This document shows, piece after piece, positions 2,944-53,346 of a stretch of DNA of 64,000 nucleotides. The notes beneath the pieces were generated by a model. The model searched no databases. It was not told the DNA's origin and worked only from the letters and a program-made list of their open reading frames with translations. Source of the stretch: a virus; IMG/VR virus record IMGVR_UViG_3300020057_000496, positions 64,001 through 128,000 of that record. One strand, written 5' to 3'. Position 1 is the stretch's first letter. Each line of letters begins with the position of its first letter. A program made the position numbers and the translations under genes.

Positions 2944-3033
2944 AAAGCTGAAAGCTCGAAAGCTGAAAGCTCGAAAGCTGAAAGCTCGAAAGCTGAAAGC
3001 TCGAAAGCTGAAAGCTCGAAAGCTGAAAGCTCG
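2944..3033. repeat. 15-bp tandem repeat x6 (aaagctgaaagctcg)
   Basis: Directly visible. Confidence 0.95.
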
Positions 3034-3111
3034 GGACTTGGCTTGTTCGCTCGCTGAATTCTTTGCTTGTCTCTTGCCTGCTCATCTCGCTCTGTCAAGT
3101 AAGAATTCAAA

Positions 3112-3203
3112 TGACGTCAGTATAAAAATACGAATTGACGTCAGTATAAAAATACGAATTGACGTCAACTAAGAATACGAATTGACGTCAACTAAGAATA
3201 CGA
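3112..3203. repeat. ~23-24-bp repeat x4 containing palindromic TGACGTCA (iteron/operator-like)
   Basis: tgacgtcagtataaaaatacgaat x2, then tgacgtcaactaagaatacga x2. Confidence 0.85.
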
Positions 3204-4117
3204 TGTCGAAGTACGACATCTTACGTCAACTACAAAAAGAAGTGCCGTCAAGCACAAAGTTGGTTCCTTCGCTCGCTCAATTCTTTGCTTGTCTCCTGCC
3301 TGCTTCGCTCGCTCTGTTTTTTTTGATTGACAAGTGCCGTTCGGCCATATCTGTGCTTGACACCAACTTTTTACTTGACATGACTCTAGAATGAGCGAAT
3401 GAGCGGCGTTCGGCCATAACTGTGCTTGAACTTGTTGCTTGACACAAACTTTATTCTTGACATCTGTCAACATAACAATTTGCACTGTGAGTGTCAATAC
3501 AAAAGATGGGACCCTATGCCGGTCCAATTTTCTGTTTGACAGGGTGGGGGGGTAGTGCTAGTGATAGTCGTGAAGATGATTCAAAATGACACGTAACCCT
3601 ATGCGGGTGGTTAGAAGTATTTCCGGGTAAGGTTATGTGGTTTATATATGTATATTTGCGTACTAAAAGACGCCAAAGTTCCAAAACAGAGCGAATAAGG
3701 GAAGGTAAGAGAGAAGAATGAATTGAATTGAGCGAATGAACCAAGTTCGAGCTTAATGAGGGGGCCTAGGTAGTCCGGGCGCCACGTCGGTGTCTCAATT
3801 TGAGTGATAATGGGTTACACTTCGACCCTGGCGGCTGCATCCGCATGCCAGGTGACGTAGACAGGGTGGTCTGAGCGTCGGAGGGGTTCTTGTTTGGGGA
3901 GGTTGTCCTTAACGCGTAACCGGCAGTGGGTGGTATTAAGTAGACATACGCGTTAAGTTTTCGCTTGATGTTAGACAAGGAATAGGTAGCTTTTTATTTA
4001 AGTTACGTAGTTAGACCACAACATGTAGTGGTCGAAGGTAGTGGAACCACAATATGTAGTGGTTTTAGGGCAAGAAGACAGCGTGAAAAGGATTAATCGA
4101 TAACGACACTTCGGCGG

Positions 4118-4321
4118 TTAGAAGTATTTCCAGGTAAGGTTATGCGGTTTTCGTGTACGTTCTGGTTGCCAGCCCCAAGCTGCGCTCAGGTAATGACCGT
4201 GGGCTGTACAGTTCGGAAAGTCCACACACAGATAGACAGGCAAGACGGGCTCGCGAATGATGCAACTAAATCCAGAGACCAGGTACTTACCGAAGTAGCC
4301 GGTACGAATTGTATATAACAA
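4118..4321 (-). CDS. MLYHIRTDY-family small protein (MLYTIRTGYF...)
   Basis: TTG start at 4321 after aagggg RBS; shared N-terminal motif. Confidence 0.75.
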   Translation of the reverse strand: MLYTIRTGYFGKYLVSGFSCIIREPVLPVYLCVDFPNCTAHGHYLSAAWGWQPERTRKPHNLTWKYF

Positions 4322-4349
4322 GAGGTCCCCTTTTAGATACTGAACGGCG

Positions 4350-4523
4350 TTACTCCCCGGTACTAACCTGCACTGTATGCCAGGATTTACCATCTTTACT
4401 TTTCAGTAAGTAAACTTTATACTCCCTTGAGTAAGAGGCGTGTTCCTCTCCGCTAGCGTCGAAGCAGGCATCGTCAAGGACATCCCCGTACCGCCAGTAG
4501 TCTGTTTTAATGTGATACAACAT
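4350..4523 (-). CDS. MLYHIRTDY-family small protein (MLYHIKTDYW...)
   Basis: Motif at ATG 4523; hairpin repeat 2 nt upstream. Confidence 0.8.
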   Translation of the reverse strand: MLYHIKTDYWRYGDVLDDACFDASGEEHASYSREYKVYLLKSKDGKSWHTVQVSTGE

Positions 4524-4557
4524 AAGATGTTGATACCTCGACATCGAGACTAGTATA

Positions 4558-4731
4558 TTACCTTAATTGAGTCCAGCGCAGACTGCCGCCCAGCATCACT
4601 AGAATGATATAGTGTTTAGTCCTTTTATTGTGGGCCACATGTTCAATTTCGTATTCGTCGAAAAAAGCATCCATAAACACACCTCCGCCCCATGCCGGCC
4701 GGAAGTAATCTGTTCGAATGTGATATAGCAT
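4558..4731 (-). CDS. MLYHIRTDY-family small protein, subfamily A (57 aa, not in ORF track)
   Basis: Hand translation MLYHIRTDYFRPAWGGGVFMDAFFDEYEIEHVAHNKRTKHYIILVMLGGSLRWTQLR; paralogue of 5160, 6568, 9926. Confidence 0.85.
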   Translation of the reverse strand: MLYHIRTDYFRPAWGGGVFMDAFFDEYEIEHVAHNKRTKHYIILVMLGGSLRWTQLR

Positions 4732-4864
4732 ACGTACGCGAAGGGGACGGAAGCATTACGTACGCGAAGGGGACGGAAGCATTACGTACGCGAAGGGGAC
4801 GGAAGCATTACGTACGCGAAGGGGACGGAAGCATTACGTACGCGAAGGGGACGGAAGCATTACG
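4731..4864. repeat. 26-bp tandem repeat x5 (tacgtacgcgaaggggacggaagcat)
   Basis: Directly visible; related to the repeats at 7939 and 9442. Confidence 0.95.
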
Positions 4865-5054
4865 CCATAACTCGACTTACCACCTTACCTGTCGCGCCAC
4901 TCCAAATATAGACCTTATTTGGGTTTTTAATATAAAAGTAAACATAGCTCCCCGACTGAAACTGTACATCGAAACCGGGTTCTTCTCGCTCGGTCTGGAT
5001 ATTTTCATAGTCATTAAACCTTTCCCAGTAACTTGTATTTAAAGTATACAGCAA
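4860..5054 (-). CDS. MLYHIRTDY-family small protein, subfamily C (MLYTLNTSYWERF...)
   Basis: Paralogue of 5628..5813. Confidence 0.8.
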   Translation of the reverse strand: MLYTLNTSYWERFNDYENIQTEREEPGFDVQFQSGSYVYFYIKNPNKVYIWSGATGKVVSRVMA

Positions 5055-5159
5055 AATGTCACCCGACTGAGAGGTGTCGATACTTCGACATCCAGGGCCA
5101 CGCGGACACGCCCGGCAGCGCTAAGATGAGGTGTCGTACTTCGATATCGGATTAGTATA

Positions 5160-5336
5160 TTACCTTAATTTGACCCAATTTAAGTCCCCGCACAGCATAA
5201 CGAGGACGATATGGTGTTTAGTTATCTTATTATAGGCAACATGTTCAAGTCCGTGTTCGTCGAGAAACGCGTCCAGGAACATGCCTCCGCCGCCAGCCCC
5301 TGGCCGGAAGTAGTCTGTTCGAATATAATAAAGCAC
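5160..5336 (-). CDS. MLYHIRTDY-family small protein, subfamily A
   Basis: GTG start, LYYIRTDYFRP...DAFLDEHGLEHVAY...WVKLR. Confidence 0.85.
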   Translation of the reverse strand: MLYYIRTDYFRPGAGGGGMFLDAFLDEHGLEHVAYNKITKHHIVLVMLCGDLNWVKLR

Positions 5337-5411
5337 GAGGTGTCCTAAGATGCCGTATATGGCATCTTGAGATGTCGCATACAACATCATATTGGTATTT
5401 TAAATGATCAA

Positions 5412-5627
5412 CTAACGGAAGTTAATAACACTATATTCTCTATTACTCCCAGCTTTTTTACGATGCCAAGACCAAGCCGGAAACTTATTATGGGCCGGAG
5501 TGCCTTCACAGAACGGCTCGACGCACGTCAGAATAGTGCCGGGTTCTTGATCAAAGAATACAATCCGCAGGCACGGAACGAAGCTCCGTGGCTGCGTCCA
5601 GTAGTCTGTTCGAATATGATACAACAC
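5412..5627 (-). CDS. MLYHIRTDY-family small protein (Cys/His-containing)
   Basis: MLYHIRTDYWTQPR...VPC; N-terminal similarity to 11265 member. Confidence 0.85.
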   Translation of the reverse strand: MLYHIRTDYWTQPRSFVPCLRIVFFDQEPGTILTCVEPFCEGTPAHNKFPAWSWHRKKAGSNREYSVINFR

Positions 5628-5813
5628 TTACCGTCTCAACCGAGTCGGTCCATTATGGACGCGAAGCGGACAGAAAGCATTGAGCCACATAAAGACCTTG
5701 TCTGGGTCGCTAACGTAGAAGAAAGCGTACTGAGCGGCGAACTGCACCTCAAAGCCGTCCAGTTCACCGCTCCGAAACCTTTCCCAGTAACTAGTCTTTA
5801 AAGTATACAGCAC
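5628..5813 (-). CDS. MLYHIRTDY-family small protein, subfamily C
   Basis: GTG start LYTLKTSYWERF...GFEVQF; hairpin upstream. Confidence 0.8.
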   Translation of the reverse strand: MLYTLKTSYWERFRSGELDGFEVQFAAQYAFFYVSDPDKVFMWLNAFCPLRVHNGPTRLRR

Positions 5814-5848
5814 GTTACGTGAGATGTCGATACTTCGGCATCGAGGTC

Positions 5849-6031
5849 CTATTTTACCCGAACCCATTGTAGACTCCCTCTCAGTATAACAAGGACGATA
5901 CAGTGCCCAGTCTTTTGATGATAGGTCACATGTGCAAGTCCGCCCTCGTCGAAAAATGTAAGATTAATACGATTAATGTCAGTCTGGTGTGGATAAACGT
6001 CCCAGTAGTCTGTTCGAATATGATATAGCAT
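5849..6031 (-). CDS. MLYHIRTDY-family small protein, apparent chimera
   Basis: First 24 aa identical to 6074 member; remainder subfamily A-like (FFDEGGLAHV...WVRVK). Confidence 0.85.
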   Translation of the reverse strand: MLYHIRTDYWDVYPHQTDINRINLTFFDEGGLAHVTYHQKTGHCIVLVILRGSLQWVRVK

Positions 6032-6073
6032 CACATACACTTAGTGGACGGAAGAATTACTTAAGTGATGAAA

Positions 6074-6289
6074 TTAGCGGAAACATACCTCTCGCCAACT
6101 ACGCCAGGCCCAGACTGGGTACTCATTATGAATCGAGATCCTCGCACAAGGCAAGTTGGAGCACATCCCGACACAGTGTCCGTCGGCGTCCTCCATGAAC
6201 GCGAAACGCGCGCACTTAAGATTAATACGATTAATGTCAGTCTGGTGTGGATAAACGTCCCAGTAGTCTGTTCGAATATGATATAGCAC
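6074..6289 (-). CDS. MLYHIRTDY-family small protein (Cys-rich)
   Basis: Shared motif. Confidence 0.85.
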   Translation of the reverse strand: MLYHIRTDYWDVYPHQTDINRINLKCARFAFMEDADGHCVGMCSNLPCARISIHNEYPVWAWRSWREVCFR

Positions 6290-6333
6290 GAGATGAGATG
6301 CCTTTCTCTAATCTTGCTTGATACCGAAGGGGT

Positions 6334-6522
6334 CTACCTAACCCGAAGCCAGTCTCTCTGGGTCCAGGAGTACCACATGGAACTACCTTTTAGTATCTTA
6401 TCTCTTAAACTATCGACATTCATAAGGAAGTCCGGGGTCCCTAAGTAGTCCGAGAACGCCTGAAGCTCAGCACCGAAGTTCGAAGCCGGAACTAAATAGT
6501 CTGTTCGAATGTGATATAGCAA
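6334..6522 (-). CDS. MLYHIRTDY-family small protein, subfamily B
   Basis: LVPASNFGAELQAF...GTPDF...MWYSW...WLRVR; paralogue of 8795, 9012. Confidence 0.85.
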   Translation of the reverse strand: MLYHIRTDYLVPASNFGAELQAFSDYLGTPDFLMNVDSLRDKILKGSSMWYSWTQRDWLRVR

Positions 6523-6567
6523 GGTGTCGTCCTCGGATACCGAGAGATGTCGTACTTCGACTTCGTG

Positions 6568-6804
6568 CTACCTTACCCGAACCCACTGCAGACGACCGCC
6601 CAGCATAACGAGGACGATATAGTGCTCAGTTCTTTTACGATAGGCCACATGTTCAAGTCCGCCTTCGTCAATGAATGCGTCCAGGAATAGCCCACCGTCA
6701 TAGGCCACATGTTCAAGTCCGCCTTCGTCAATGAATGCGTCCAGGAATAGCCCACCGTCATTTTGGTCTGGCTGGAAGTAATCTGTTCGAATACGATACA
6801 ACAT
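6568..6804 (-). CDS. MLYHIRTDY-family small protein, subfamily A, with in-frame 60-bp internal duplication
   Basis: MLYRIRTDYF; DGGLFLDAFIDEGGLEHVAY occurs twice. Confidence 0.85.
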   Translation of the reverse strand: MLYRIRTDYFQPDQNDGGLFLDAFIDEGGLEHVAYDGGLFLDAFIDEGGLEHVAYRKRTEHYIVLVMLGGRLQWVRVR

Positions 6805-6829
6805 TATGGTTACGATGGAGTATGATTTA

Positions 6830-7015
6830 TCAACATAGGTTAAGGAACTTAATGTCGTAAATCCAGGAACCATTAGATATCCGTGGTGGTAGATGGTACG
6901 GGCAGTACGGGTAATCATTACACCTAAAATACAACCCACTCCCTACCTTACAGTAAACCACGCACTTAGCACGACCATATGGGGTTACGTGCCCTGTAAA
7001 TATTCTATATAACAT
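6830..7015 (-). CDS. Divergent MLYHIRTDY-family small protein (MLYRIFTGH...)
   Basis: Motif variant; same size and strand as the array. Confidence 0.65.
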   Translation of the reverse strand: MLYRIFTGHVTPYGRAKCVVYCKVGSGLYFRCNDYPYCPYHLPPRISNGSWIYDIKFLNLC

Positions 7016-7553
7016 TTAGGACACGAAGGACGAAGGTTCGGATCCTAGCTAGAACGAAGTCACGGTCCGAGAACTCCTCTTCTGAGATTTCAAGGAGACT
7101 TATTCTACGTTCCAGCAGGAAGAGTCTCTTATTCGAACCACTCCGGATACTGCCCTTGGTGGCGTGCCAGAAGGACCCGTTGGCCTCTATGGCTAGATGG
7201 AGGGCTGGGAGCCAGCAATCCACTACGTACTTCTCGCCAACCAGGGCCTGCTCTTCGTATTCGAACCCCAGTTCCTGCTGAAGTTCGAGCAGGACGTCGT
7301 TAAGGGCATCTTCGATCCAAGTCCGTGGCATGCTACGGACGGCACAGAGGTGCGAGCAATACCGGTCCCTTCCGCGTCTCATATTGCCAGCCTTACGGTA
7401 TAGCGGAAGGCCGCATTCGAGGCAAGTGGAGAGTCCGCCGCCGCGACGTCCGGCGTCCCACTGCTCCCATATCTTGCGGCAGACCTGGCCGCAGAAGGTG
7501 GTCAGCCTCCGTGACGACAAGAAGGGGTAGCTACAGGAAAGACAGAACCGCAT
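7005..7553 (-). CDS. Zn-ribbon + DUF559/Vsr-like PD-(D/E)XK endonuclease (homing-endonuclease-like)
   Basis: CxxC...FCxxxC repeats; WIEDAL...YEEQALVGEKYVVDCWLPALHLAIEANGSFWH. Confidence 0.7.
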   Translation of the reverse strand: MRFCLSCSYPFLSSRRLTTFCGQVCRKIWEQWDAGRRGGGLSTCLECGLPLYRKAGNMRRGRDRYCSHLCAVRSMPRTWIEDALNDVLLELQQELGFEYEEQALVGEKYVVDCWLPALHLAIEANGSFWHATKGSIRSGSNKRLFLLERRISLLEISEEEFSDRDFVLARIRTFVLRVLNVI

Positions 7554-7730
7554 TGGTGCATCCTTGTTGAGTCGTACTTCGACTTACTTACGACGGAAGA
7601 ATTAGTGCAATCGATATTTGATTCGCCCAAGTCCACCATTAGGATACCTGACTAAGGTCAAGGCCCCCAGAACACCGAGATTCAGCCTGGGCACGGTCCG
7701 CTAACCCAGTAAGCTGTTTTAATATTAGAA

Positions 7731-7943
7731 TTACCAAACGAAGTAGTGCTGTTTTCCTTCAACATATCGCCAAGCCTGGAAGCTTCTGGGGGACCTCGTG
7801 AAGTGATTCCGGCATTTCGGGTGTTCTGTGCACAGATATGTCCCTTCCCCTGGATGCCCCTCAACACGCGGGCCGATCTTCAGCACGCATGGATAAAACC
7901 CTGGGTCAGCGTACAGGTAGTCTGTTTTTATGTGATATAGCAT
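7731..7943 (-). CDS. MLYHIRTDY-family small protein (MLYHIKTDYL..., Cys/His)
   Basis: Shared motif. Confidence 0.85.
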   Translation of the reverse strand: MLYHIKTDYLYADPGFYPCVLKIGPRVEGHPGEGTYLCTEHPKCRNHFTRSPRSFQAWRYVEGKQHYFVW

Positions 7944-8070
7944 TATGGACCCGAAGGGGACAGAAGCATTATGGACCCGAAGGGGACAGAAGCATTATGG
8001 ACCCGAAGGGGACAGAAGCATTATGGACCCGAAGGGGACAGAAGCATTATGGACCCGAAGGGGACAGAAG
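7939..8070. repeat. 26-bp tandem repeat x5 (agcattatggacccgaaggggacaga) overlapping the start codon of the 7731 ORF
   Basis: Directly visible; two identical copies also at 9442-9493. Confidence 0.95.
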
Positions 8071-8150
8071 GATTATTAAGACCGGCTAATTACACAACTC
8101 TGATCCAGTCCTTTTTAACCCAAGAGTACCAATTGCGTCAAGCTCCGTCA
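8069..8150 (-). promoter_or_regulatory. Duplicated ~80-bp module with putative sigma70-like promoter pointing into the array
   Basis: Minus strand TTGACG-17/18 nt-(T)TAAAAA; near-identical copy at ~9520-9601. Confidence 0.45.
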
Positions 8151-8380
8151 CCAGAAGTCATCGCTTCTTGCCCCCTGGCGCCCGATTCCGGCAACTGTTG
8201 CCGGAATCGTTGCCGGAATGGGCGGCCGGAAACCGGGGAAGCGGTACGAGTCGGAGAGATGACGGCGAGGTCTCGGCAATGGCATCGCGCAATCATGCCG
8301 AGTTTTCGCAGCGGCTCAACCCCTCCCTGAGCCGCTTCCGGAGCGGGTTTTCTCCTTCTCAACCCTGCTCGGCTACCCAC

Positions 8381-8524
8381 TCAAACCCCCGAAGAGCCAA
8401 TATTAAGAAAGAGGTCCGAAGTATTCAGACAGTCGAGGTCCGAAGTATGCAGACAGCCACTGAACGCACAAAGCCAGGAGCCGACAGCCAAAACTAGATA
8501 ATCTGTTCGAATAGTATATAACAT
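8381..8524 (-). CDS. Truncated subfamily B-like MLYHIRTDY member (47 aa, not in ORF track)
   Basis: Hand translation MLYTIRTDYLVLAVGSWLCAFSGCLHTSDLDCLNTSDLFLNIGSSGV*; hairpin 2 nt upstream; ends at a GC-rich insert. Confidence 0.7.
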   Translation of the reverse strand: MLYTIRTDYLVLAVGSWLCAFSGCLHTSDLDCLNTSDLFLNIGSSGV

Positions 8525-8549
8525 GAGATGTCGTACTTCGACTCATGAA

Positions 8550-8747
8550 TCATGCGTTCATTATTAGGAAGTTCCCGTTAACCGTACAGACCCACTTATT
8601 TTTATGCAGACGGCACGCGCCGTCGAGACATGTTATATATATAAATGGGTCCCAGCCTTGCTTTCCCGGAAAATAGACCAACCGTATACAGCTTGCTGCG
8701 CCGTTACCAGCAGTGCCTAGCCAATTTGTTTTGATAGTATACAACAT
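8550..8747 (-). CDS. MLYHIRTDY-family small protein (MLYTIKTNW...)
   Basis: Motif variant. Confidence 0.75.
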   Translation of the reverse strand: MLYTIKTNWLGTAGNGAASCIRLVYFPGKQGWDPFIYITCLDGACRLHKNKWVCTVNGNFLIMNA

Positions 8748-8794
8748 GGGTAGTTTAAGTAACAACCACGTGTCGCACCTGACACCGAAGGGGC

Positions 8795-8989
8795 CTACTT
8801 AACCCGAAGCCAGCCCCCCCGGGTCCAGGAGTACCACATAGAACTACCTTTTGGTATCGAAGGTCTGAGAAAAGGCCTGTTGATATTCATAAAGAAATCC
8901 GGTGTCCCCCAGTACTCCGAGAACGCCTGAAGCTCGGCACCGAAGTCCGAAGCCGGAACTAAATAGTCTGTTTTAATGTGATATAACAT
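8795..8989 (-). CDS. MLYHIRTDY-family small protein, subfamily B
   Basis: Close paralogue of 6334. Confidence 0.85.
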   Translation of the reverse strand: MLYHIKTDYLVPASDFGAELQAFSEYWGTPDFFMNINRPFLRPSIPKGSSMWYSWTRGGWLRVK

Positions 8990-9011
8990 GCGGCACCTAC
9001 GTTAAGGGGCC

Positions 9012-9209
9012 TTACCGGACGCGAACCCAGGTCTTCCTAGCCCAGGAGTACCACATCGAACCACCTTCTGGTATCGGATATTCGCATTTAATGGACCTTT
9101 CAATATTAATAAAGAAGTCCGGTGTCCCCCAGTAATCCGGGAACGCCTGAAGCTCGGCTTTAAGACTCATAGCCGGAATTAAATGGTCTGTTCGAATATG
9201 ATACAGCAC
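9012..9209 (-). CDS. MLYHIRTDY-family small protein, subfamily B
   Basis: MLYHIRTDHLIPA...AELQAF...GTPDFF...WVRVR. Confidence 0.85.
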   Translation of the reverse strand: MLYHIRTDHLIPAMSLKAELQAFPDYWGTPDFFINIERSIKCEYPIPEGGSMWYSWARKTWVRVR

Positions 9210-9215
9210 GGCGCA

Positions 9216-9446
9216 TCACACTAGTGGCTTAAAATCCAGGATATACGTCTTATTTCTACTACACCGGACCCACTGGTTCGGCTTCATGATCCTTTTTTTC
9301 CTAACTACGCACAGAGTAGTCCGAAGACTAATTCGATAATACAGTATATTGAGCGGCGCATTTTCTAGCTCAATATCGAACACGCATTTTTCTAACCCGT
9401 ATACCCCGGACACGACCAGGTAGCTCGTTCTGAGTTTATATAGCAT
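9216..9446 (-). CDS. MLYHIRTDY-family small protein (MLYKLRTSYL...)
   Basis: Motif variant. Confidence 0.8.
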   Translation of the reverse strand: MLYKLRTSYLVVSGVYGLEKCVFDIELENAPLNILYYRISLRTTLCVVRKKRIMKPNQWVRCSRNKTYILDFKPLV

Positions 9447-9624
9447 TATGGACCCGAAGGGGACAGAAGCATTATGGACCCGAAGGGGACAGAAGGATTA
9501 CGGACACGAAGCGGCCGGAAGGATTATTAAGACCGGCTAGTTACACAACTCTGATCCAATCCTTTTTAGCCCAAGAGTACCAATTGCGTCAAGCTCCGTC
9601 AAGCTCCGTCAAGCTCCGTCAAGC
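9442..9624. repeat. Second copy of 26-bp repeat / promoter-like module plus gtcaagctcc x3-4
   Basis: Matches 7939-8150. Confidence 0.85.
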
Positions 9625-9900
9625 TAGCAGGTAGAGGGACGGCAGCATGGTTGTGAGGATCTTGAGTCGCAGGTACTCCTCATCACGTAGGCCGCCGAAT
9701 TCTATATAGATCCTATTGATACAACCGGCCCCATGTTTATGCCTGACCAGACAAAGACGGAGCCTAAAGCGAGAGAGGCTATTTTCTTGATAGGGCAAAG
9801 CTAAGCTGAAACGGAACGCAAATCCATAATTCGAATAGTACATAACAAATAAAGGGTTATTTGGCATATGCAGGTAGTCTGTTTTAATGTGATACAACAT
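9619..9900 (-). CDS. MLYHIRTDY-family small protein (MLYHIKTDYL..., 93 aa)
   Basis: Shared motif; hairpin 2 nt upstream. Confidence 0.8.
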   Translation of the reverse strand: MLYHIKTDYLHMPNNPLFVMYYSNYGFAFRFSLALPYQENSLSRFRLRLCLVRHKHGAGCINRIYIEFGGLRDEEYLRLKILTTMLPSLYLLA

Positions 9901-9925
9901 GAGATGTTAATACTTCGACATCGAG

Positions 9926-10111
9926 CTATCTTACTCGAACCCACACAGGTCGGCCGTTTACCGTTGCCAGAATGCAATGCTTCTTAGTTATCTTATTATA
10001 GGCCAGATGTTCAAGTCCGTGTTCATCCCGGAACGCATCAAGAAACGCTGACATCACCCTGGACACGCTATACGTGGGCGTGAAGTAGTCTGTTCGAATA
10101 TGATATAACAC
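9926..10111 (-). CDS. MLYHIRTDY-family small protein, subfamily A
   Basis: GTG start; DAFRDEHGLEHLAYNKITKKH...WVRVR. Confidence 0.85.
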   Translation of the reverse strand: MLYHIRTDYFTPTYSVSRVMSAFLDAFRDEHGLEHLAYNKITKKHCILATVNGRPVWVRVR

Positions 10112-10189
10112 ATAGACACAAATAAGGAAAAGTTCACACGAAATAGTAACATTTTCCATTCATATTTCGCCAGGCCATAAGCGGGAGCA

Positions 10190-10260
10190 TTGACATCCTC
10201 CCCGCCCTAAAGGACGAGGATTCCTACTGCTAGCGTCGCATGCCCGCGACGGAGAATGTT
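10190..10260 (-). mobile_element. IS605-type right end / 3' part of omegaRNA scaffold
   Basis: Minus strand GGAATCCTCGTCCTTTAGGGCGGGGAGGATGTCAA hairpin ending in TCAA, overlapping the tnpB stop. Confidence 0.75.
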
Positions 10261-11262
10261 CTTGGCGGCATTCACATCACGATCGTGACGTGTGCCGCAC
10301 TCCGAACAAGTCCATTCCCTTATTCCAAGACATGTAATACCTTTCGGCCTCGACTCGGGGAGTGATCCGCAAGACGAGCATGTTTGGGTGGAGTACGCTT
10401 CGTTGACCTCAACGAACAACACGCCAGCGTTTTCGCTTTTGTAATGCAGCATTGTTCGGAACGACGACCAGCCTGCATCTAAGACGGACTTTGCCATTTT
10501 AGTTTTTGCAAGGCCGGAGGCGTTCACATTACCAACGAAGATCGCACCATTCTCACTCACGAGATTGGTGCTCAGTTTGTGCAGGAAGTCTTTCCTGCGG
10601 TTTGCTATTTGAGCGTGAATCGTTTTGACTTGTTTCGTCTTGTTAGCACGCTGCGCCGTTGCCAGCTTGACCTCTGCACCACGGTAAAGGCGCTGCGCTT
10701 CGATTTTCACGCCATTAGACATTGTAGCGAAGTCTTTCAAACCAAGATCAATGCCAACGGATGCAACGCCGGTCGATTTTGCTACAGCAACTTCGACGCA
10801 GATATTGGCGTACCAACGGCCACGAGTATCTTGGCTGAAACTGCCGGAACCTAATTTGTATTGGTCTAGTCCGTAACTATCCCATAACCCAAAGCACTGA
10901 CCCGCATAGCGTATCTGACCGCCTTTGTAGGCGATGCAGTCATGTCGGAATGGAATCCAGCCCAAGGACTTGCGCGCACCAAATGACGTGCGCCAGCGCA
11001 GCTTGGCTTTCTTGAACTGCTTGCGACGCGTAACTAGTTCAGCACCGATCATTTGTACCGATGCTGAATTGATTGACAATCCTTCCTTCGTTGCTCCTGC
11101 AGTATATTTTTGCAGGTCGTAACTACTGAAGAATTTACCAGTGCGTCGGAGGTGTTTATAGGATAGTTCATTGCAGTAATTCCACACCGTATTGACATCC
11201 AACGCCAAGGCATCGAGTGCCTTAGCGTGTTTGTCTTTGATACGGACTCGCAATGTTTTCAT
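10207..11262 (-). CDS. tnpB: IS200/IS605-family RNA-guided endonuclease TnpB
   Basis: RuvC-I VGIDLGLK, Zn ribbon TCSSCG...WTCSECG, RuvC-III HDRDVNAAKNI. Confidence 0.95.
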   Translation of the reverse strand: MKTLRVRIKDKHAKALDALALDVNTVWNYCNELSYKHLRRTGKFFSSYDLQKYTAGATKEGLSINSASVQMIGAELVTRRKQFKKAKLRWRTSFGARKSLGWIPFRHDCIAYKGGQIRYAGQCFGLWDSYGLDQYKLGSGSFSQDTRGRWYANICVEVAVAKSTGVASVGIDLGLKDFATMSNGVKIEAQRLYRGAEVKLATAQRANKTKQVKTIHAQIANRRKDFLHKLSTNLVSENGAIFVGNVNASGLAKTKMAKSVLDAGWSSFRTMLHYKSENAGVLFVEVNEAYSTQTCSSCGSLPESRPKGITCLGIREWTCSECGTRHDRDVNAAKNILRRGHATLAVGILVL

Positions 11263-11264
11263 GT

Positions 11265-11486
11265 TTAAACTAGGCGGACAATTGCATTAGCTTGAAGCAA
11301 CCAGGGAACACCACGCGACTGTTCTGGATGAATCAAGCAGTGGTCGTTATGACACTGATATAGCCCCTGGCGACTGTCGTCAGCCGAGAGGGGTTCTGCC
11401 CTTAACGCCGAGGTGAAGCTCGCCGAGATACAGGGAACGTAGTTCCGGTGCTTAGTCCAGTAGTCTGTTCGAATAGAATACAACAT
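11265..11486 (-). CDS. MLYHIRTDY-family small protein (MLYSIRTDYWTKHRNYVPC...)
   Basis: Shared motif. Confidence 0.85.
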   Translation of the reverse strand: MLYSIRTDYWTKHRNYVPCISASFTSALRAEPLSADDSRQGLYQCHNDHCLIHPEQSRGVPWLLQANAIVRLV

Positions 11487-11526
11487 CAATATCTCTCCAC
11501 GGAGGTGTGGATCACCATCGTCGTTT

Positions 11527-11709
11527 TCAAACGAGAACGACATAATCGTGGTTTTTATACGAGAACGATATACAGGCGCTCGTATCTCCCTGCCAATAAG
11601 TAAATAGCCTCAAGTTATACTCGCCAGTGTAATCTCGCATGGCACATAAGTTCTTTGTTGGGTCAAGGCCCACTGCCACAAAGTGGTCGGTTCTAATTTT
11701 ACACAGCAA
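11527..11709 (-). CDS. MLYHIRTDY-family small protein (MLCKIRTDHF...)
   Basis: TTG start; motif variant; hairpin tandem upstream. Confidence 0.7.
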   Translation of the reverse strand: MLCKIRTDHFVAVGLDPTKNLCAMRDYTGEYNLRLFTYWQGDTSACISFSYKNHDYVVLV

Positions 11710-11710
11710 G

Positions 11711-11810
11711 GTGAGGTGTCGATACTTCGATACCGTGAGGTGTCGATACTTCGATACCGTGAGGTGTCGATACTTCGATACCGTGAGTGTCGCACTTCGA
11801 TACCGAGGTG
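11711..11810. repeat. 24-bp tandem of the intergenic hairpin (gtgaggtgtcgatacttcgatacc x3 + variant)
   Basis: Directly visible. Confidence 0.9.
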
Positions 11811-11813
11811 AGA

Positions 11814-12041
11814 TCACCTAAAATAAACAGTAATATCTAAATCACTATTGATGATTCTAAATCTAGTTTTATGATATATACTGGAGTGCGTAGCGCTACT
11901 GGAGTGCGTAGCGCAACTGTCATTACGGCAGAACCTCATCTCGTACCGCAGGGGCCTCCCGGAATCAAAGGCCATCTCTAGACAATGAAGAAATGACGGA
12001 ACGTTCGCCACGAGATAGTCCGTTCTTATTATGTACAGCAC
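11814..12041 (-). CDS. MLYHIRTDY-family small protein (MLYIIRTDYL...)
   Basis: Shared motif; internal ATHSS duplication. Confidence 0.85.
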   Translation of the reverse strand: MLYIIRTDYLVANVPSFLHCLEMAFDSGRPLRYEMRFCRNDSCATHSSSATHSSIYHKTRFRIINSDLDITVYFR

Positions 12042-12043
12042 GG

Positions 12044-12253
12044 CTATCTTAACTCAACCCAGGCACTTAGTCTCCACGAAAACCACACAGAGCGGCGGGG
12101 CTTGAGCCCGCCCGGACGTCCACTGAAATCATGCGCGGAATCCACATTTAGGAACAAGTCTCCGGTGCCGTTCATGTCGGCAAAGGCTCGCAGATTGATT
12201 CCTGGCACGTCAGATGTCGTGCTTAAATAATCCGTTCTGATGTGGTACAACAT
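12044..12253 (-). CDS. MLYHIRTDY-family small protein, distant subfamily B
   Basis: LRAFADMNGTGDLFLNVDS...VWFSW...WVELR. Confidence 0.85.
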   Translation of the reverse strand: MLYHIRTDYLSTTSDVPGINLRAFADMNGTGDLFLNVDSAHDFSGRPGGLKPRRSVWFSWRLSAWVELR

Positions 12254-12332
12254 ACCCTAAATAAAATATAACATTACGGATACGGAGTAGACGTAAGGAC
12301 CACGAACACTCAGCGTCGAGTCGTACTTCGAT

Positions 12333-12421
12333 TCATCGGAAATCCTCTCGGCGGAGACCGGGGCAGAACGTTGTCATCACTTGGCGGAAAGCCCCAGCCT
12401 TCAGGCCGGGGAAGACGTTAC
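12333..12421 (-). mobile_element. IS200/IS605-end-like hairpin element, homologous to 56358-56434
   Basis: Minus strand taacgtcttccccggcctgaaggctggggctttcc...ggtctccgccgagaggatttccgatga. Confidence 0.6.
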
Positions 12422-12989
12422 CAGCGCGACGAAGCCGGTCCCACTCGGCTTGCACCTCCGGCAGCGATGACGTTGCCGCGTCCGCGTCGCCGAGCGGCTC
12501 GAGCGCGCGCCGACGAACGCTGTACGTCTTTCCGGTCCCGGGCGGCCCGTACAGGATGATGTTCGACGCCGGGCCAGTCGGCGTGTAGGTCTTCGCGGGC
12601 GTAGCGGTGGCGACCGTGTTGGTCTGCACGTCGCGCAGGATGGCGTCGATGCCGATCTTGAACTGCTGTGCCTCGGCCTCCGTGATCTCGCGCAGCTCCG
12701 GCGCCGCCGACAACTCCGGCGCCTGCATCATCGGTAGCCGGCGCCAGTAGAGTTGCGTCTCCTTCCCGCCGTCGAGCGCCAGCACGCGGGCGAGCGCGAC
12801 GACGCTATCGCCATCATGCAGAGCGATCACGTGGCCCGCGCGGATGCCCTCTTGAAAGAGCTTCGACGGTACGGCGTACGACGCGGGCAAGTCGCTCACG
12901 CGCACCTCGTCCTTCGCGGCGAGTTGGGCCCGCTGCTCGGCGGGCGCGATGTCCTTTAGAGGTACGAACCAGAAGCGGGCGTTACTCAT
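12422..12989 (-). pseudogene. McrB-like AAA+ GTPase, truncated shortly after Walker A
   Basis: MSNARFWFV...NIILYGPPGTGKTY...WDRLRRAG then runs into the hairpin element; start overlaps the MTase stop. Confidence 0.7.
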
Positions 12990-15963
12990 CGCTCGCCCTC
13001 TCACTGCCAAACAGGCTCGACCAGCCGCCTGCGCGTTCAATGCATTGATCGATCTCGCTCGAGACCTCAACGAGTCGACCGCAGGCCTCAACGATCGAGC
13101 GGAAGGTGGCGATCTCCTCGTCAGACAGCGAACGCTCGTTCTTGCGCCGATCGTCGAGCCACTTATGACAGACCTGATAGGCCCCGATGGTAAACTCCCA
13201 CGAGGCAACGGGAACGGCGTCGAAGTAGCTCGTCGCGTTGATGAACAGACGCCCCTGCGACGCGCTGGGTGCCGTGAGTCGCATGGTCTTACCCCCCTCG
13301 CCGACCTTGGTTACTTCGCGGTCCGCGCCGTTGAACTTCGCCAACGCCCTAGGCGCCGCTACCTCCAACAAGTATGCGGACGCGAGCTGTCCTCCAAGCT
13401 CGCTCAGCTCGTGAAACGCGACCAACGTCGGGGGGACCGGAATCTTCGGGAAGTCCACCTGCAGCATGTCCAGGTACCGTTTCCGGTACTCAGGCGAGTG
13501 CAGGATCGCGACGATGTAGTCGAAGAGCAGTTCCGGCCACGAAGTCACTCCGCGAGAGGTCGGCCACTTGCTGCGTGGGCCAAGCGTCTGCTCGAAGCGC
13601 GCCACAGCACTCTCCGCGAAGTTGGCGACGCGGAGTGCTCCATCGGCCTCCGGGCTCAAGTACAGAGGGAACGCGTAGCCACGCTCCCTGCTCCTATTGG
13701 AGACGCAACTGTCATCGACGATGCGGTCGGCTACCAGCACATGGCTCCAAGTTGGGCTGACGATCTGGCGACAGACCATGAGGCAGCGATTGGTGGCCAC
13801 GGGGCGAAGATGAACAAAGACATCTTCCCGCGGCCAGTCGACCATCCAAGGCGCGTAGTAGACGTGCCGCGTGTCGAAGGGCCTGTAGAGGCACGGCTCG
13901 GGGCGAGTGCGCCACTGCCGGTCAGCCGCCACCTTCTTTCGAGCCTCGGAGAGTTTCCATCCCCTGGTATCGCCCGGCGGATATTTGCCTTCGCTTCGTT
14001 CTCCGAAAAAGCGGGAGCGAACTGCCGCATCGCTGACGGACGCGTCGCGAAAATCCTCGATGCGGTCGAGAAGGCTTTCGGCATCGAAGTCGACCACCAA
14101 ACCGTCGCGCGCGGTGATGAGCCCAGTCGTCGAGGTGGCCATCAGGTCGGTCACTTTGATGAACGTGGCAAAGTCTGCGCTTCCTCCCGCCTGCCACGGG
14201 AAGAAGAAGTAGTAGGGAGTGGAGGGCGCAAGCGCTGCGAGCCGGCCAGCGCCGGCCTCCAGCAGCGCCAGCTTCTCTTTCCTCACTCCCCAGACGTCTC
14301 GATGAAGCACGACAGACGTCGGAGCGGTGGACGAGGAAGGCGTCGCGCTGCGGACCATGATGGCGATCGCAACGCCCTGCTGAATCTGGAAGACGTTCTC
14401 GTCGGTGACCCCTTTCGGCATGCGTCGGCGATTCTTCGTGCTCCCATTCAGATCGATCACCTTAATTCGAGGGAACGTGCGCATGAGTTGCTGACGCATT
14501 CCTCGGAACGTCGGGTTGGAGAGGTAGCCGTTGTTCGTGACCATTCCCACGACGCCGAGCCCGGAGCACTCGATCCGCCACTGCGCCATACGGATGAACT
14601 TTACGTAGTCATCGTTCAGCCAGAGCTTCTTCTCGCCAAGCGACTGCCCATCGACCTCGTAGTAGCTGCCCGTCGCTTGGTCGGACGGCGACACGCCCTT
14701 CAACAGCCCGACGATCCATCCTCCGTTGTTCTGTGAGACGGCAGCGTACGGCGGGTTGCCGACGACCACGGTGATGGCCGCGCGAACCTTGGTTTCCTCC
14801 GCTAGGCGGGACTCGTCGGCCACATTCGCGCCCAGCATTTCGAGTTGCTTGCCGGTGTGCGGTTCGAGCGAGTTCGTAAGGAACACCCGCAGTCGATCGT
14901 TCTTCGCGAACGTGAAGCCGGTCTCCTGCAGCGCGAGGCCGAGCCGCAGGTGGCTTACGATGTATGGCGCCATCATCAGCTCGAAGCCGTTGATGCGCGG
15001 GAGCAGATCACGGCGGACGTAGCCGACCCACGCCTTCTTTGCGGCCTCCTCGTCGAGTCCCTGCTTCTTGAACTCGGCCTGCATCGTTTCGTGGATGACC
15101 TCGATGACGCGCAGGAGGAACGTGCCCGTGCCGAGCGCCGGGTCGAGCACCTGGACGAACGCAGCCTTCGGGTCGACGCCCTCGGGCACGCTGAGGTTCT
15201 TCGCCTTGGCGAAGGCCGCCCACGTCGTCGTGTCGGCGAGGCCGAGCGGAAGACCGAAGTCGCTCCGCAACGACGCGTGCGCCGTGCGCACGATGTAGCT
15301 GACCACCTCGTCGGGCGTGTAGTAGACGCCCTGGTCCCTGCGGAGCTGAGGGTCGTAGGCGTCGAGGAAGTCTTCGTAGAAGTGGATCGACGGGTCGCGC
15401 TTCTGGTCGCGGAAGACCTGCGCCACCGAGGTCCGCGCGAGCAGGCTCGTGATGTCGTCGAGCAGCCACGAGAGGTTCTTGTCGAAGTTGGAGTTGACCA
15501 GCTTGTCGAACAGGTCCTTGAGGAACGCGCTCGTCTCGGGGAGCAGATCCTTCAGGTTCTTGCGCGTGAACAGCGGGCTCTCGCTCCTCGAGATCCAGCG
15601 CGCGGCCAACATGCCGTAGGTGACGGTTTGCGCGTAGGCGTCGGCGAACTTCTCGACGCTGAGGGTCGCGAGCGCCTGATTGCAAATGTCGAAGAGCTGT
15701 TTCAGTGGGCCACCCCCGCGCGCGATCTCGCGCTCCAGCTCCTCGATCGCGATCGCCTTCAAATGGCGGGCACGCCAGGCGAGTTCGGTGGCGAGCTGGG
15801 CAGGCTTCTCAACCGCGCGCGGCACCGAAGCCGTGCCGTCGCTATCACTGCCGAAGACGTCGTCGCCGCTGAACGCAGCGCTCGAGGCCTTCTTCTGCGC
15901 TCGTTTTGGGGCAGCCGGTGCACCGTCGAGAATGCGGCGGACGAACTCTTCTTTGCTCAGCAT
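12982..15963 (-). CDS. N6-adenine DNA methyltransferase with C-terminal specificity domain (type IIG / type ISP-like); N-terminal nuclease apparently absent
   Basis: GVYYTPDEVV, motif I VLDPALGTGTF, motif IV VGNPPY, C-terminal YRPFD and WEFTIGAYQVCHKWL. Confidence 0.85.
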   Translation of the reverse strand: MLSKEEFVRRILDGAPAAPKRAQKKASSAAFSGDDVFGSDSDGTASVPRAVEKPAQLATELAWRARHLKAIAIEELEREIARGGGPLKQLFDICNQALATLSVEKFADAYAQTVTYGMLAARWISRSESPLFTRKNLKDLLPETSAFLKDLFDKLVNSNFDKNLSWLLDDITSLLARTSVAQVFRDQKRDPSIHFYEDFLDAYDPQLRRDQGVYYTPDEVVSYIVRTAHASLRSDFGLPLGLADTTTWAAFAKAKNLSVPEGVDPKAAFVQVLDPALGTGTFLLRVIEVIHETMQAEFKKQGLDEEAAKKAWVGYVRRDLLPRINGFELMMAPYIVSHLRLGLALQETGFTFAKNDRLRVFLTNSLEPHTGKQLEMLGANVADESRLAEETKVRAAITVVVGNPPYAAVSQNNGGWIVGLLKGVSPSDQATGSYYEVDGQSLGEKKLWLNDDYVKFIRMAQWRIECSGLGVVGMVTNNGYLSNPTFRGMRQQLMRTFPRIKVIDLNGSTKNRRRMPKGVTDENVFQIQQGVAIAIMVRSATPSSSTAPTSVVLHRDVWGVRKEKLALLEAGAGRLAALAPSTPYYFFFPWQAGGSADFATFIKVTDLMATSTTGLITARDGLVVDFDAESLLDRIEDFRDASVSDAAVRSRFFGERSEGKYPPGDTRGWKLSEARKKVAADRQWRTRPEPCLYRPFDTRHVYYAPWMVDWPREDVFVHLRPVATNRCLMVCRQIVSPTWSHVLVADRIVDDSCVSNRSRERGYAFPLYLSPEADGALRVANFAESAVARFEQTLGPRSKWPTSRGVTSWPELLFDYIVAILHSPEYRKRYLDMLQVDFPKIPVPPTLVAFHELSELGGQLASAYLLEVAAPRALAKFNGADREVTKVGEGGKTMRLTAPSASQGRLFINATSYFDAVPVASWEFTIGAYQVCHKWLDDRRKNERSLSDEEIATFRSIVEACGRLVEVSSEIDQCIERAGGWSSLFGSERASDE

Positions 15964-16045
15964 GCTTCCTCACTCGGTCTCACGGGCACAGTCTCGTCGA
16001 GGCGACGAAGCTGAAGGATTCGAAAGCCACTGACTAACAAATACC

Positions 16046-16255
16046 CTATCTGAGGTATATATAGCATGCCGGGCTTACCTTTTTCCGATCGTAGAGCCAA
16101 TTAGCATGCGGCAGCCCACTGTGCGCCCAGCCGTTACATAATTTAAGCGACGGACAGTGACTAAATACCCTGTCTGTGTCGACGAACGCCCCGACGGTAC
16201 AGGACCCCTGATAGGAGAGCGCCACGATATAGTCTGTTCGAATGTGATATAGCAT
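16046..16255 (-). CDS. MLYHIRTDY-family small protein
   Basis: Exact motif MLYHIRTDY. Confidence 0.85.
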   Translation of the reverse strand: MLYHIRTDYIVALSYQGSCTVGAFVDTDRVFSHCPSLKLCNGWAHSGLPHANWLYDRKKVSPACYIYLR

Positions 16256-16312
16256 TACTAGACAAATTTCTATAAAACGAGCTTCCGTACATCTGCACAG
16301 CAGACAGAAGGA

Positions 16313-16549
16313 CTAGCGCATCCTGAACCAGTACCTACCTCCACAACCCAATACGTCCCCGATACTAGGGACAATAGTCTCGTCCGTATCGTTATGTATG
16401 CCGAATTTCGTTTTTATCGAACCTAATATAAGGGTATACCCTACGGTCATGTTCGAGTAGCTGTCGGCAGTAAATGCTAACTGACGGTTCCCGTCCGCCC
16501 TGATGTTACGAAACTGAGTCCAGTAGTCAGTTCTGAGACGGTATAGCAC
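16313..16549 (-). CDS. MLYHIRTDY-family small protein (MLYRLRTDYWTQ...WFRMR)
   Basis: Shared motif. Confidence 0.8.
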   Translation of the reverse strand: MLYRLRTDYWTQFRNIRADGNRQLAFTADSYSNMTVGYTLILGSIKTKFGIHNDTDETIVPSIGDVLGCGGRYWFRMR

Positions 16550-17006
16550 TGGCGTTCAATTCTCCGATTAACCGTAGGGCCTTCTGTGGAACGAAGTAAG
16601 CCTCCTCGCGACCGCCGTACTCCTGCAGGAACGCCCCGTCCTTGGCTTGGTCTGAATGAATCCAGCCGCGCACGACATAGCCTGGGGCTTGGCCTGTTAC
16701 AAGGACATAGACACCGGAAGGATCACCTTTTCGAACAATGAGTTCATAGGAGTGCCGGGACCGTGTTCGGACATAAACCGGGCCAACGTCCGGGCGCTTG
16801 AAGGTATCCACGCTGGAGTCATAGTACCACCCGACCGCCTTCGCAAAGGCCATCTCGCCGCACGCGCCTTCGAGGTGATACTGCCACGCCATGTCCCCCT
16901 TGCCGCCGTGTTTATCTTCTACCTGCCTGGACAGCGCCGAGACGTGTCGCATCACGCCGACGAGTGCACCGGCCATTACCTCGCTACTTGTTAATTTGAC
17001 GTTCAC
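16527..17006 (-). CDS. Conserved phage hypothetical protein (possibly PD-(D/E)XK-like)
   Basis: EGACGEMAFAK...PDVG...VRT pattern common in phage proteins. Confidence 0.6.
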   Translation of the reverse strand: MNVKLTSSEVMAGALVGVMRHVSALSRQVEDKHGGKGDMAWQYHLEGACGEMAFAKAVGWYYDSSVDTFKRPDVGPVYVRTRSRHSYELIVRKGDPSGVYVLVTGQAPGYVVRGWIHSDQAKDGAFLQEYGGREEAYFVPQKALRLIGELNASAIPSQN

Positions 17007-17226
17007 GCTTGTTCAGGTGCTTGCCGTAACCAACTGGTACTCTAAATATAACAGTAAGCCCGCCCGGCTTCCAGGCATAAAGACGCCCACGCTTCAGGCT
17101 GTCCACATAGATAGTTTTTGTATGTGCGTCTATGTCGTCGCCGTGAGGGTCGGTATGAACCGGATACCATACCGCCAGGAAGACTGCCGAATCTCTTTTA
17201 TAATAACAGGACAAAGAATACAGCAT
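16984..17226 (-). CDS. Possible divergent array member (MLYSLSCYY...)
   Basis: MLY start with hairpin variant gtcgatacttcggc just upstream. Confidence 0.5.
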   Translation of the reverse strand: MLYSLSCYYKRDSAVFLAVWYPVHTDPHGDDIDAHTKTIYVDSLKRGRLYAWKPGGLTVIFRVPVGYGKHLNKRERQINK

Positions 17227-32131: not shown

Positions 32132-32240
32132 TTCTGAGAGCACAACGAAAGGTGTCGAACTTACGATACCAAAAGGTGAGGTGTCGATACTTCGGCACCG
32201 TGTCGTACTTCGATATCGTAAAGAAAAAAGACATGTATAA

Positions 32241-50979: not shown

Positions 50980-51189
50980 ATGCTATACCATATAATAACT
51001 TCATATACTTGTGGGGATTGTTATCAAAGAAATATAAGTTGGTCCGCCGAGGAGTACGAAAGAGAACAAAGAGAACCAAGTTCAACATTCACCGTCTGCA
51101 CCCACGACTCAACTGGTATACATTTCGGAGAAGAAATCTGCCCCTGGTATGCTGTAAACAAAGAGATTGATGAAGGATATGACATTTAA
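50980..51189 (+). CDS. Possible orphan MLYHIRTDY-family member (MLYHIITSY...)
   Basis: 69 aa, motif variant, Cys/His-containing. Confidence 0.5.
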   Translation: MLYHIITSYTCGDCYQRNISWSAEEYEREQREPSSTFTVCTHDSTGIHFGEEICPWYAVNKEIDEGYDI

Positions 51190-53098: not shown

Positions 53099-53346
53099 TC
53101 GTGAGTAAAGGAACTTCCTGATTCATCGATTCTCCGGGGCGGAAACCCCGTCCTTTAGGGCCGTACAGAGCGCCACCGCAGTTTAGGAACCAATGCTTTA
53201 CTATATTCAAACTGGCGTTTGGTGTTCTCATTGCGACAACCCAGTCAACGGCATCAAGGCGAACCATATTCGGGTTTCCTGGCAGTCTTGGTTTTGCTTA
53301 TTTCAGAATCGAACAAGCGCTTGTTCGAAGTAGAGAGGGATGCGAA

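Follow-up and report, generated by a model that had tools for sequence, protein, structure and literature searches.

Why would a phage devote a long run of tiny genes to proteins that begin alike and then diverge? This question is raised by an array at positions 4,118 to 17,226 of a 64,000-nucleotide stretch (hereafter, the window), i.e., bases 64001-128000 of the 166,852-bp IMG/VR contig IMGVR_UViG_3300020057_000496. The contig is linear, has a guanine-cytosine (GC) content of 54% and a CheckV completeness of 87%, and belongs to an uncultivated tailed phage of microbial mats. The array consists of small open reading frames (ORFs) whose products share an N-terminal sequence, MLYHIRTDY in its commonest form (hereafter, the tag), and differ in the remainder (hereafter, the body). 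These ORFs are a real, previously undescribed family of miniprotein genes. The tag is read here, tentatively, as a shared N-terminal beta-strand by which diversified early effectors dock; it is the explanation we prefer, though not one that we would call probable.

A preliminary description of the window had counted about 26 clear members and one weak member, co-oriented and 47-93 aa long. A six-frame scan with the strict pattern [M/V/L-start]-L-Y-x-[ILV]-[RKNF]-T-[DSGN]-[YHW] found 25 ORFs of 47-93 aa from 4118 to 16549, every one on the minus strand, and no further match in the rest of the 166,852-bp genome. The scan bore out the earlier observation; both of the short members that it named, 4558-4731 (57 aa) and 8381-8524 (47 aa), are present, and the recoded tag codons quoted at 12253 and 16549 were correct. 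Beyond the strict set, a degenerate-tag member (11527..11709, minus strand, TTG start, MLCKIRTDHF) and a weak member (16984..17226, minus strand, MLYSLSCYY) were found. Two dispersed plus-strand ORFs extended the family, i.e., 50980..51189, with MLYHIITSY followed by CGDC, and the 46-aa candidate 53193..53333, with MLYYIQTGVW followed by CSHC, upstream of an XRE-type helix-turn-helix ORF. The phage has 26-29 copies in all. The array takes up about 8% of the genome, and a similar or larger share in the relatives.

Selection holds the tag constant at the peptide level and not at the DNA level. When the members were aligned at the start codon, the information content was at most 0.5 bit at -30 to -1, jumped at +1 and dropped after about +30. 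Conservation within the tag was 3-periodic, i.e., second codon positions were invariant and third positions variable. Among tag codons 2-9, 54 of the 87 variant codons were synonymous and 33 non-synonymous, against an expectation of 24% synonymous. Leu2 was written with five codons (CTA, TTG, TTA, CTG, and CTT) and Arg6 with CGA, CGT, and AGA, and 24 of the 25 tag 27-mers were distinct. In three related contigs described below (L009, L091, and L093), up to 11 Leu/Ile-type codons were used at position 2, and both TAT and TAC at Tyr3. Selection on the peptide, as the preliminary description had proposed, follows from variation that is mostly synonymous and 3-periodic and from the distinct 27-mers. 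The frame-independent nucleotide conservation expected of a non-coding dispersed or tandem DNA repeat was not found in the array members. Tyr3 was encoded by TAT in 22 of 25 members, whereas the large genes of the phage favour TAC (77:47), a minor RNA-level bias that hints at some A/U preference near the start.

The ratio of non-synonymous to synonymous substitution rates (dN/dS) agreed with this result. Among paralogues of the same body subfamily, both parts of the protein stayed below 1, the tag (mostly 0-0.2) lower than the body (0.16-0.77). The bodies are therefore under purifying selection and the tag under stronger purifying selection; conservation at the DNA level only does not fit these values. 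Pairwise averages gave no sign of positive selection on the bodies. In the strain contigs L001-L005, which are 96-99.7% identical overall, the ORFs differ by only about 0.3%, so the strain-level comparison (15 differences in 4.7 kb) has too few changes for power.

The bodies were grouped by body-only BLAST, and the groups were compared by body-only BLAST and by hhalign profile-profile alignment. The earlier statement that bodies diverge almost completely holds between subfamilies, for which neither method detected similarity. It does not hold within subfamilies A (5-6 members), B (4) and D (2), where body identity was 30-70%, nor for group C, which shares Cys and His residues. Subfamily A, on the minus strand as are all members that follow, comprises 4558..4731, 5160..5336 (GTG start), 5849..6031, 6568..6804, 9926..10111 (GTG start) and, distantly, 4350..4523 (MLYHIKTDY). 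Subfamily B comprises 6334..6522 (TTG start), 8795..8989, 9012..9209 (GTG start, MLYHIRTDH) and 12044..12253, with the recoded tag TTG TAC CAC ATC AGA ACG GAT TAT. Subfamily D comprises 4860..5054 (TTG start) and 5628..5813 (GTG start). Group C, a looser set, is marked by three invariant Cys with a His (C...C-x4-6-C-x2-4-H), which the other members lack. It comprises nine members, i.e., 4118..4321 (TTG start, LLYTIRTGY), 5412..5627 (GTG start immediately past the stop of 5628-5813), 6074..6289, 6830..7015 (MLYRIFTGH), 7731..7943, 8550..8747 (MLYTIKTNW), 11265..11486 (MLYSIRTDY), 11814..12041 (GTG start), and 16046..16255. Four bodies are singletons, i.e., 8381..8524, with an internal repeat of variable copy number, 9216..9446 (MLYKLRTSY), 9619..9900 (93 aa), and 16313..16549 (GTG start), with the recoded tag CTA TAC CGT CTC AGA ACT GAC TAC.

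The array recurs in synteny in at least three relatives, which with the window phage makes four lineages. A 159-aa conserved phage protein encoded beside the array (16527..17006, minus strand; phrog_18407, more than 460 homologues) is a widespread syntenic anchor, and it led to L009, a 171-kb contig of 37% GC that carries a homologue. The L009 array has at least 53 co-oriented ORFs of 36-92 aa, placed downstream of patatin and ThyX genes and around the 159-aa homologue. Its members begin M-(L/I)-Y-x-(F/I)-(R/K...), e.g., MIYNFRFDYW, MLYKFKFDVW, and MIYTFRCGPW. An endonuclease gene in this array is 49% identical to the copy embedded in the window array, and through endonuclease homologues two further lineages of this layout were reached, L091 with 27 members and L093 with 16. 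The arrays of all three flank the same ThyX gene, 159-aa gene and endonuclease gene. In 80 other viral contigs with the 159-aa gene no comparable array was found, and the endonuclease used as an anchor in viral contigs retrieved no relatives. In the relatives, most neighbouring members share 1 or 4 nt of overlap, with a coding fraction of up to 0.99.

Across lineages the shared motif is M-(L/I)-Y-x-(F/I/L)-(R/K), which in the window phage is sharpened to MLYHIRTDY-(W/F/L). The bodies behaved differently. Clustering of 121 non-redundant members from all lineages gave 99 body clusters, 89 of them singletons, and none of the window body types recurred in another lineage. A hidden Markov model of the window family scored L009 bodies no better than shuffled controls, and body-only profiles linked no lineages. 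One further feature was found at the C-terminus. Trp occurs in the last 12 residues of 55% of members, compared with 34 +/- 4% in within-sequence shuffles (0 of 2000 shuffles reached the observed value). It often stands in the form W-x-Phi-x-(R/K), where Phi is a hydrophobic residue, and is enriched in all four lineages. The array genes make up a real, clade-specific and rapidly turning-over multigene family, of which the N-terminal strand is the sole deeply conserved feature.

The preliminary description had recognized no named family, and the database searches agree. No Pfam-A or PHROG match at curated cut-off was obtained for 10 window members, 53 L009 members or 10 further members. When 1.84 billion representatives were searched with a profile built from all members, ten proteins were returned, all of them the phage's own or its strain variants. 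Megablast found no match to the array among 50,697 phage records, and a homologous-protein search from the type B member 6337-6522 gave no candidate with enough shared words. A degenerate DNA pattern for [start]LYHIRTDY had 0 matches in viral contigs and hit only the same phage, L004 and L005 in metagenome contigs. In genome contigs it gave two single matches inside larger unrelated proteins, which were rejected as chance. ESM Atlas feature searches with two members gave no usable match. In the searchable literature, no description of such miniprotein arrays was found.

What, then, might the constant strand do? The proposed mechanism begins from a clade-specific family of miniproteins, 36-93 aa and mostly beta-rich, which would have expanded in tandem in an early-looking leftward arm within a group of phages with genomes of roughly 170 kb (relatives have between 16 and at least 53 copies). 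The tag would form a beta-strand, short and amphipathic, with a turn rich in Pro and Gly after it. This strand may be a common docking or assembly strand, which would join one shared partner by beta-strand addition; the partner could come from the phage, from the host or from the family itself. The remainder of each protein would have diversified into many unrelated binding bodies, including a putative zinc type with three Cys and one His (CCCH), and these may act as host-takeover or counter-defence effectors.

The docking strand is favoured because both strand faces are conserved in the window phage (R/K6 in 23/25, T7 in 25/25, and D8 in 19/25 members) and because a turn follows the strand, residues 11-18 being rich in P/G/S/T/N/D (0.47 vs 0.31). 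It is favoured also because the same tag is placed on bodies that differ in Cys content and likely secondary structure; by inspection of the sequences, some short L009 members look helical after the tag. A further reason is that structure models leave the tag unpacked. The AlphaFold2 (AF2) model of member 4558..4731 (mean predicted local distance difference test score, pLDDT, 78) has five beta-strands from residue 10 on, and the model of a type C member was poor (pLDDT 62, tag below 50). In both, residues 1-9 are low-confidence coil outside the folded body. The unpacked tag is weak evidence, since the quality of these models is modest and the alignments are shallow. The model of 4558..4731 gave no significant fold match, i.e., the best E-value by Foldseek against the PDB was 0.77, the Atlas shape search listed generic beta-meanders only, and the best Z by VIA-align wide was 3.7. 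Among the weak matches, Sm, Tudor, and other small beta proteins appear repeatedly.

Several points weigh against the docking strand. Conservation shrinks to five or six tag residues in the three low-GC relatives, where the tag resembles an ordinary hydrophobic first strand, e.g., MIYKFVIAIPY. The C-terminal Trp enrichment fits N- and C-terminal strands that close one small fold, so that no external partner is needed. Gene order is the sole basis for the early timing; the array shows no enrichment of Sigma-70-like promoters (16 sites vs 11.3 +/- 3.7 in shuffles) or of terminators.

A structural explanation is a serious rival because only M-(L/I)-Y-x-(F/I/L) survives in the relatives and because the C-terminal Trp is co-enriched. 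All members would share one ancestral small beta fold, perhaps SH3- or Sm-like, in which the first strand (M-Phi-Y-x-Phi) pairs with the last (W-x-Phi-x-+). Everything between the two strands would have diverged, the N-terminus would have no separate address or docking role, and the array would amount to a library of binders built on one scaffold. The alternating hydrophobic pattern of the tag and the Trp strand in four lineages are consistent with such a fold, as are the ending W[VL]R[VL][RK] shared by subfamilies A and B, the five strands modelled for 4558..4731 and the weak matches to Sm and Tudor proteins. However, the outward-facing polar positions 6 and 8 are also conserved in the window phage, and the CCCH bodies and helical-looking short L009 members are hard to fit to one fold. 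AF2 leaves the tag unpacked, body-only profiles relate neither subfamilies nor lineages, and no fold match exceeds Z 3.7. The single fold is the main rival, a real but doubtful possibility.

The preliminary description had explained the tag mainly by analogy with phage T4, in which internal proteins are targeted to the capsid. The tag would bind the scaffold or protease core, and the miniproteins would be packed in proheads and injected as an anti-restriction or anti-defence library. The precedent is a true one: the T4 internal proteins IPI, IPII, and IPIII carry a capsid targeting sequence, and the polymorphic internal-protein loci of T-even phages differ from one related phage to another (PMC3012670, citing Repoila et al. 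1994). The array has the same form, i.e., about 10 conserved N-terminal residues on otherwise unrelated small phage proteins, as in all 25 strict members, and it too is variable. Genes for a prohead protease-scaffold, a portal and an HK97-fold capsid are also present in the phage. Restriction pressure on it is real, because GGATCC is avoided in the whole genome (2 sites observed, 47 expected). GTCGAC is depleted as well (16 observed, 47 expected), and TCGA is over-represented (1111 vs 642). The two depletions are restriction-site avoidance, to judge from the site counts, and point to putative BamHI-like and SalI-like host systems.

Other features of the array do not agree with capsid targeting. 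The T4 targeting sequence is cleaved after Glu by gp21, a protease of the Peptidase_S77 family. In the array no Glu or other residue is fixed past position 10, so there is no conserved cleavage motif after the tag, and the protease of this phage is Peptidase_S78 (HK97 type); PF03420 is absent from the genome and PF04586 (HK97 type) is present. The array is located about 50 kb from the head module, in a divergent block with ThyX and a patatin-like gene, and the tag was not found on any larger virion protein. The charge of the members is mixed, with a median isoelectric point of 8.6 and 16% acidic. T4 internal proteins show no sequence similarity to array members and occur in few copies, compared with 25-53 tandem copies here. 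Capsid targeting is thus unlikely. The analogy is weakened by protease family, cleavage and position, and by the short hydrophobic motif and co-enriched C-terminal Trp of the relatives. The earlier interpretation is partly supported, namely in that these are coding genes of a phage with a peptide-selected tag and no named family.

A signal for processing or turnover is less likely still. Here the tag would be a leader or degron for a protease or modifying enzyme, similar to the leader of a ribosomally synthesized and post-translationally modified peptide (RiPP), or a timer for short-lived early proteins. RiPP precursors likewise join a constant N-terminus to a variable remainder, one group of members is Cys-rich, and a radical-SAM enzyme is encoded elsewhere in the genome. 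That gene (L008:10459-11574), the sole radical-SAM gene found, is about 55 kb from the array and inside a glycosyltransferase island. No maturase, protease or transporter was found in or beside any of the four arrays, so the RiPP arrangement of leader, core and adjacent maturase or protease is absent. The tag has only 5-10 residues and no GG/GA-type cleavage site, and the bodies of 40-80 aa look folded and are under purifying selection.

The weakest alternative, that the 27 nt are a DNA recombination handle or an RNA translation-initiation signal with incidental ORFs, could draw on the TAT preference at Tyr3, on recombination through shared 5' sequence and on the hairpins and tandem repeats that abut several start codons, but it is largely refuted by the codon analysis, by a motif kept in genomes of 36-39% GC with wholly different codons and by body dN/dS below 1, and is hardly credible.

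The array does not appear to belong to any of the known systems with which it was compared, i.e., the T-even internal-protein loci, the hyperplastic regions with promoter-early stem-loop (PeSL) elements, and the conflict families with constant N-terminal and variable C-terminal parts. Conotoxin precursors, RxLR effectors, and African swine fever virus multigene families are of the last type. In polymorphic toxins, a conserved N-terminal trafficking or recognition part is followed by highly diversified C-terminal parts (PMC3482391). Tandem arrays reshuffled by recombination and the conserved N-terminal and diversified C-terminal parts are common to these families and the array. However, their N-terminal parts are whole domains or signal peptides, whereas the array proteins are only 36-93 aa long, and no toxin or immunity domains or secretion signal were found in them. 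T4-type hyperplastic regions have small lineage-specific ORFs, recurrent stem-loops and shuffling between repeated flanks (PMC2839356, PMC4122927). The array is similar in the hairpin ahead of several members and in recombination through shared sequence. The repeat unit of PeSL regions is a non-coding regulatory cassette with unrelated ORFs, whereas here the repeat is a peptide-selected coding N-terminus. The unenriched Sigma-70-like promoters of the array and the arrays of the low-GC relatives, almost without intergenic space, also differ from PeSL regions.

Members are gained and lost by recombination through shared 5' ends. The array is intact in strain contigs from several mat samples, and differences between strains were found at several points. 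Members 5849..6031 and 6074..6289 share their first 72 nt and thus an identical N-terminal 24 aa; the latter is a recombinant of a type C body with the 5' end of the former, and one of the pair, annotated as 6074..6289, is deleted in L003 and in run X8. An internal 60-nt duplication in member 6568..6804 is polymorphic among strain contigs, and the copy numbers of tandem repeats vary between strains.

These tandem repeats have a 26-nt unit and precede three members on the minus strand. The repeat at 4727..4864 (5.3 copies) ends in the ATG of member 4558..4731; the others are located at 7939-8076, before 7731..7943, and at 9442-9527, upstream of 9216..9446. Each unit contains an 8-codon upstream ORF (uORF), MLPSPSRT or MLLSPSGP with its stop, and the TAA stop overlaps the next ATG (TAATG). 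The repeats thus appear to form a ladder of coupled mini-ORFs ending at the member's own start codon. Two repeat families were distinguished, with different sequence and the same uORF design. A hairpin, GATGTCGA-AGTA-TCGACATC, is placed upstream of about seven members (8 matches vs 0.01 expected). Hairpins are located at 4526-4545, directly upstream of 4350..4523, and at 9903-9922, upstream of 9619..9900, and 24-nt hairpin repeats (11711-11805) precede the degenerate-tag member. An extra hairpin copy (GGTGCCGAAGTATCGACACC) was seen outside the array at 32180-32199 on the minus strand, between plus-strand replication genes. A degenerate tRNA array was considered for the TTCGAA core and rejected, i.e., the stems are unpaired and ARAGORN finds none. 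tRNA and Rfam scans of the array region gave nothing relevant.

Three larger elements are embedded in the array. TnpB (10207..11262, minus strand; OrfB_IS605 and Cas12f1-like TNB domains) is intact between two array members; contig L003 and one contig from run X2 lack it, so that the population is polymorphic for this insertion. A 3.4-kb block of high GC (62-63%) at 12495..15860 contains a Type ISP-like methyltransferase/restriction ORF (12982-15963, minus strand) of 993 aa with Type ISP C-terminal specificity and N6_Mtase domains. The block was found only in the window contig; in strain contigs and in three mat runs, 12490/12495 is followed directly by 15883/15886. Either a minority variant acquired the block recently by insertion, or the assembly is chimeric here.

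The third element is the endonuclease gene, which encodes 175-185 aa with a Zn-ribbon and a Vsr/DUF559-like domain and matches HNH/homing-endonuclease PHROGs. It is placed inside the arrays of all four lineages at 47-51% identity, i.e., at 7005-7553 (minus strand) in the window, L009:12244-12777, L091:10001-10549, and L093:75-632. Such conservation is unusual for a homing endonuclease, and the gene could be a stable part of the array, e.g., a driver of recombination. The L009 (8567-8713) and L091 (8349-8492) arrays also contain a gene for a 47-48-aa Cys-rich Zn-ribbon-like protein (MAIKK...CDICG...CKGIC) without the M-Phi-Y tag. A bolder form of the docking explanation can be drawn, with considerable doubt, in which the M-Phi-Y-x-Phi-(R/K) strand would be a universal adaptor that plugs dozens of fast-evolving miniproteins into one machine, perhaps the prohead core, from which they would be injected along with the DNA, or a host hub, and the array a recombination-shuffled library of effectors for counter-defence or takeover. 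The embedded endonuclease may drive the shuffling.

The genome around the array has two divergent parts. From about 29.4 kb, the plus strand encodes a Cas4-like exonuclease, a Sak4-like protein, a helicase, a T7-type primase/helicase, RNA and DNA ligases, ribonucleotide reductase, and terminase, and the portal, Peptidase_S78 protease-scaffold, and HK97-fold capsid genes are located just outside the window. On L008 these three genes occupy 1234-3207, 3226-5142, and 5328-6605, in that order. The minus-strand block, from about 29.4 kb down to 4.1 kb, encodes an AAA ATPase, a patatin-like lipase, a phosphohydrolase, ThyX, and the array. The array is thus in the leftward, early-looking block beside ThyX and not with the head genes. 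A protein of 342-355 aa adjoins the arrays in three lineages (18625-19653, minus strand, in the window; L009:2783-3823; L091:4392-5459; identity 46-48%). It has an N-terminal signal peptide and CAP/SCP-like motifs, with no Pfam or PHROG match at the thresholds used. No close sequenced phage was found, the best primase identity being 27%. The phage was detected in at least 8 microbial-mat metagenome runs, and HIP1 enrichment, a hint of a cyanobacterial host, is absent from the whole genome.

The tandem miniprotein genes fill about 8% of a phage genome, have only an invariant N-terminus in common and match nothing in current databases, and this scale is notable alongside the full lack of annotation. 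If the docking tag is true, it would be the T4 capsid-targeting principle found for a second time, independently, or a new principle that works inside the cell. It would also provide a ready handle for cargo delivery and list more than 100 candidate proteins for interaction with the host. If the structural strand is true, the family would be a natural minimal scaffold that tolerates extreme sequence diversification. Under either explanation, the array provides a defined, testable entry into the function of the small-ORF 'dark matter' of phages.

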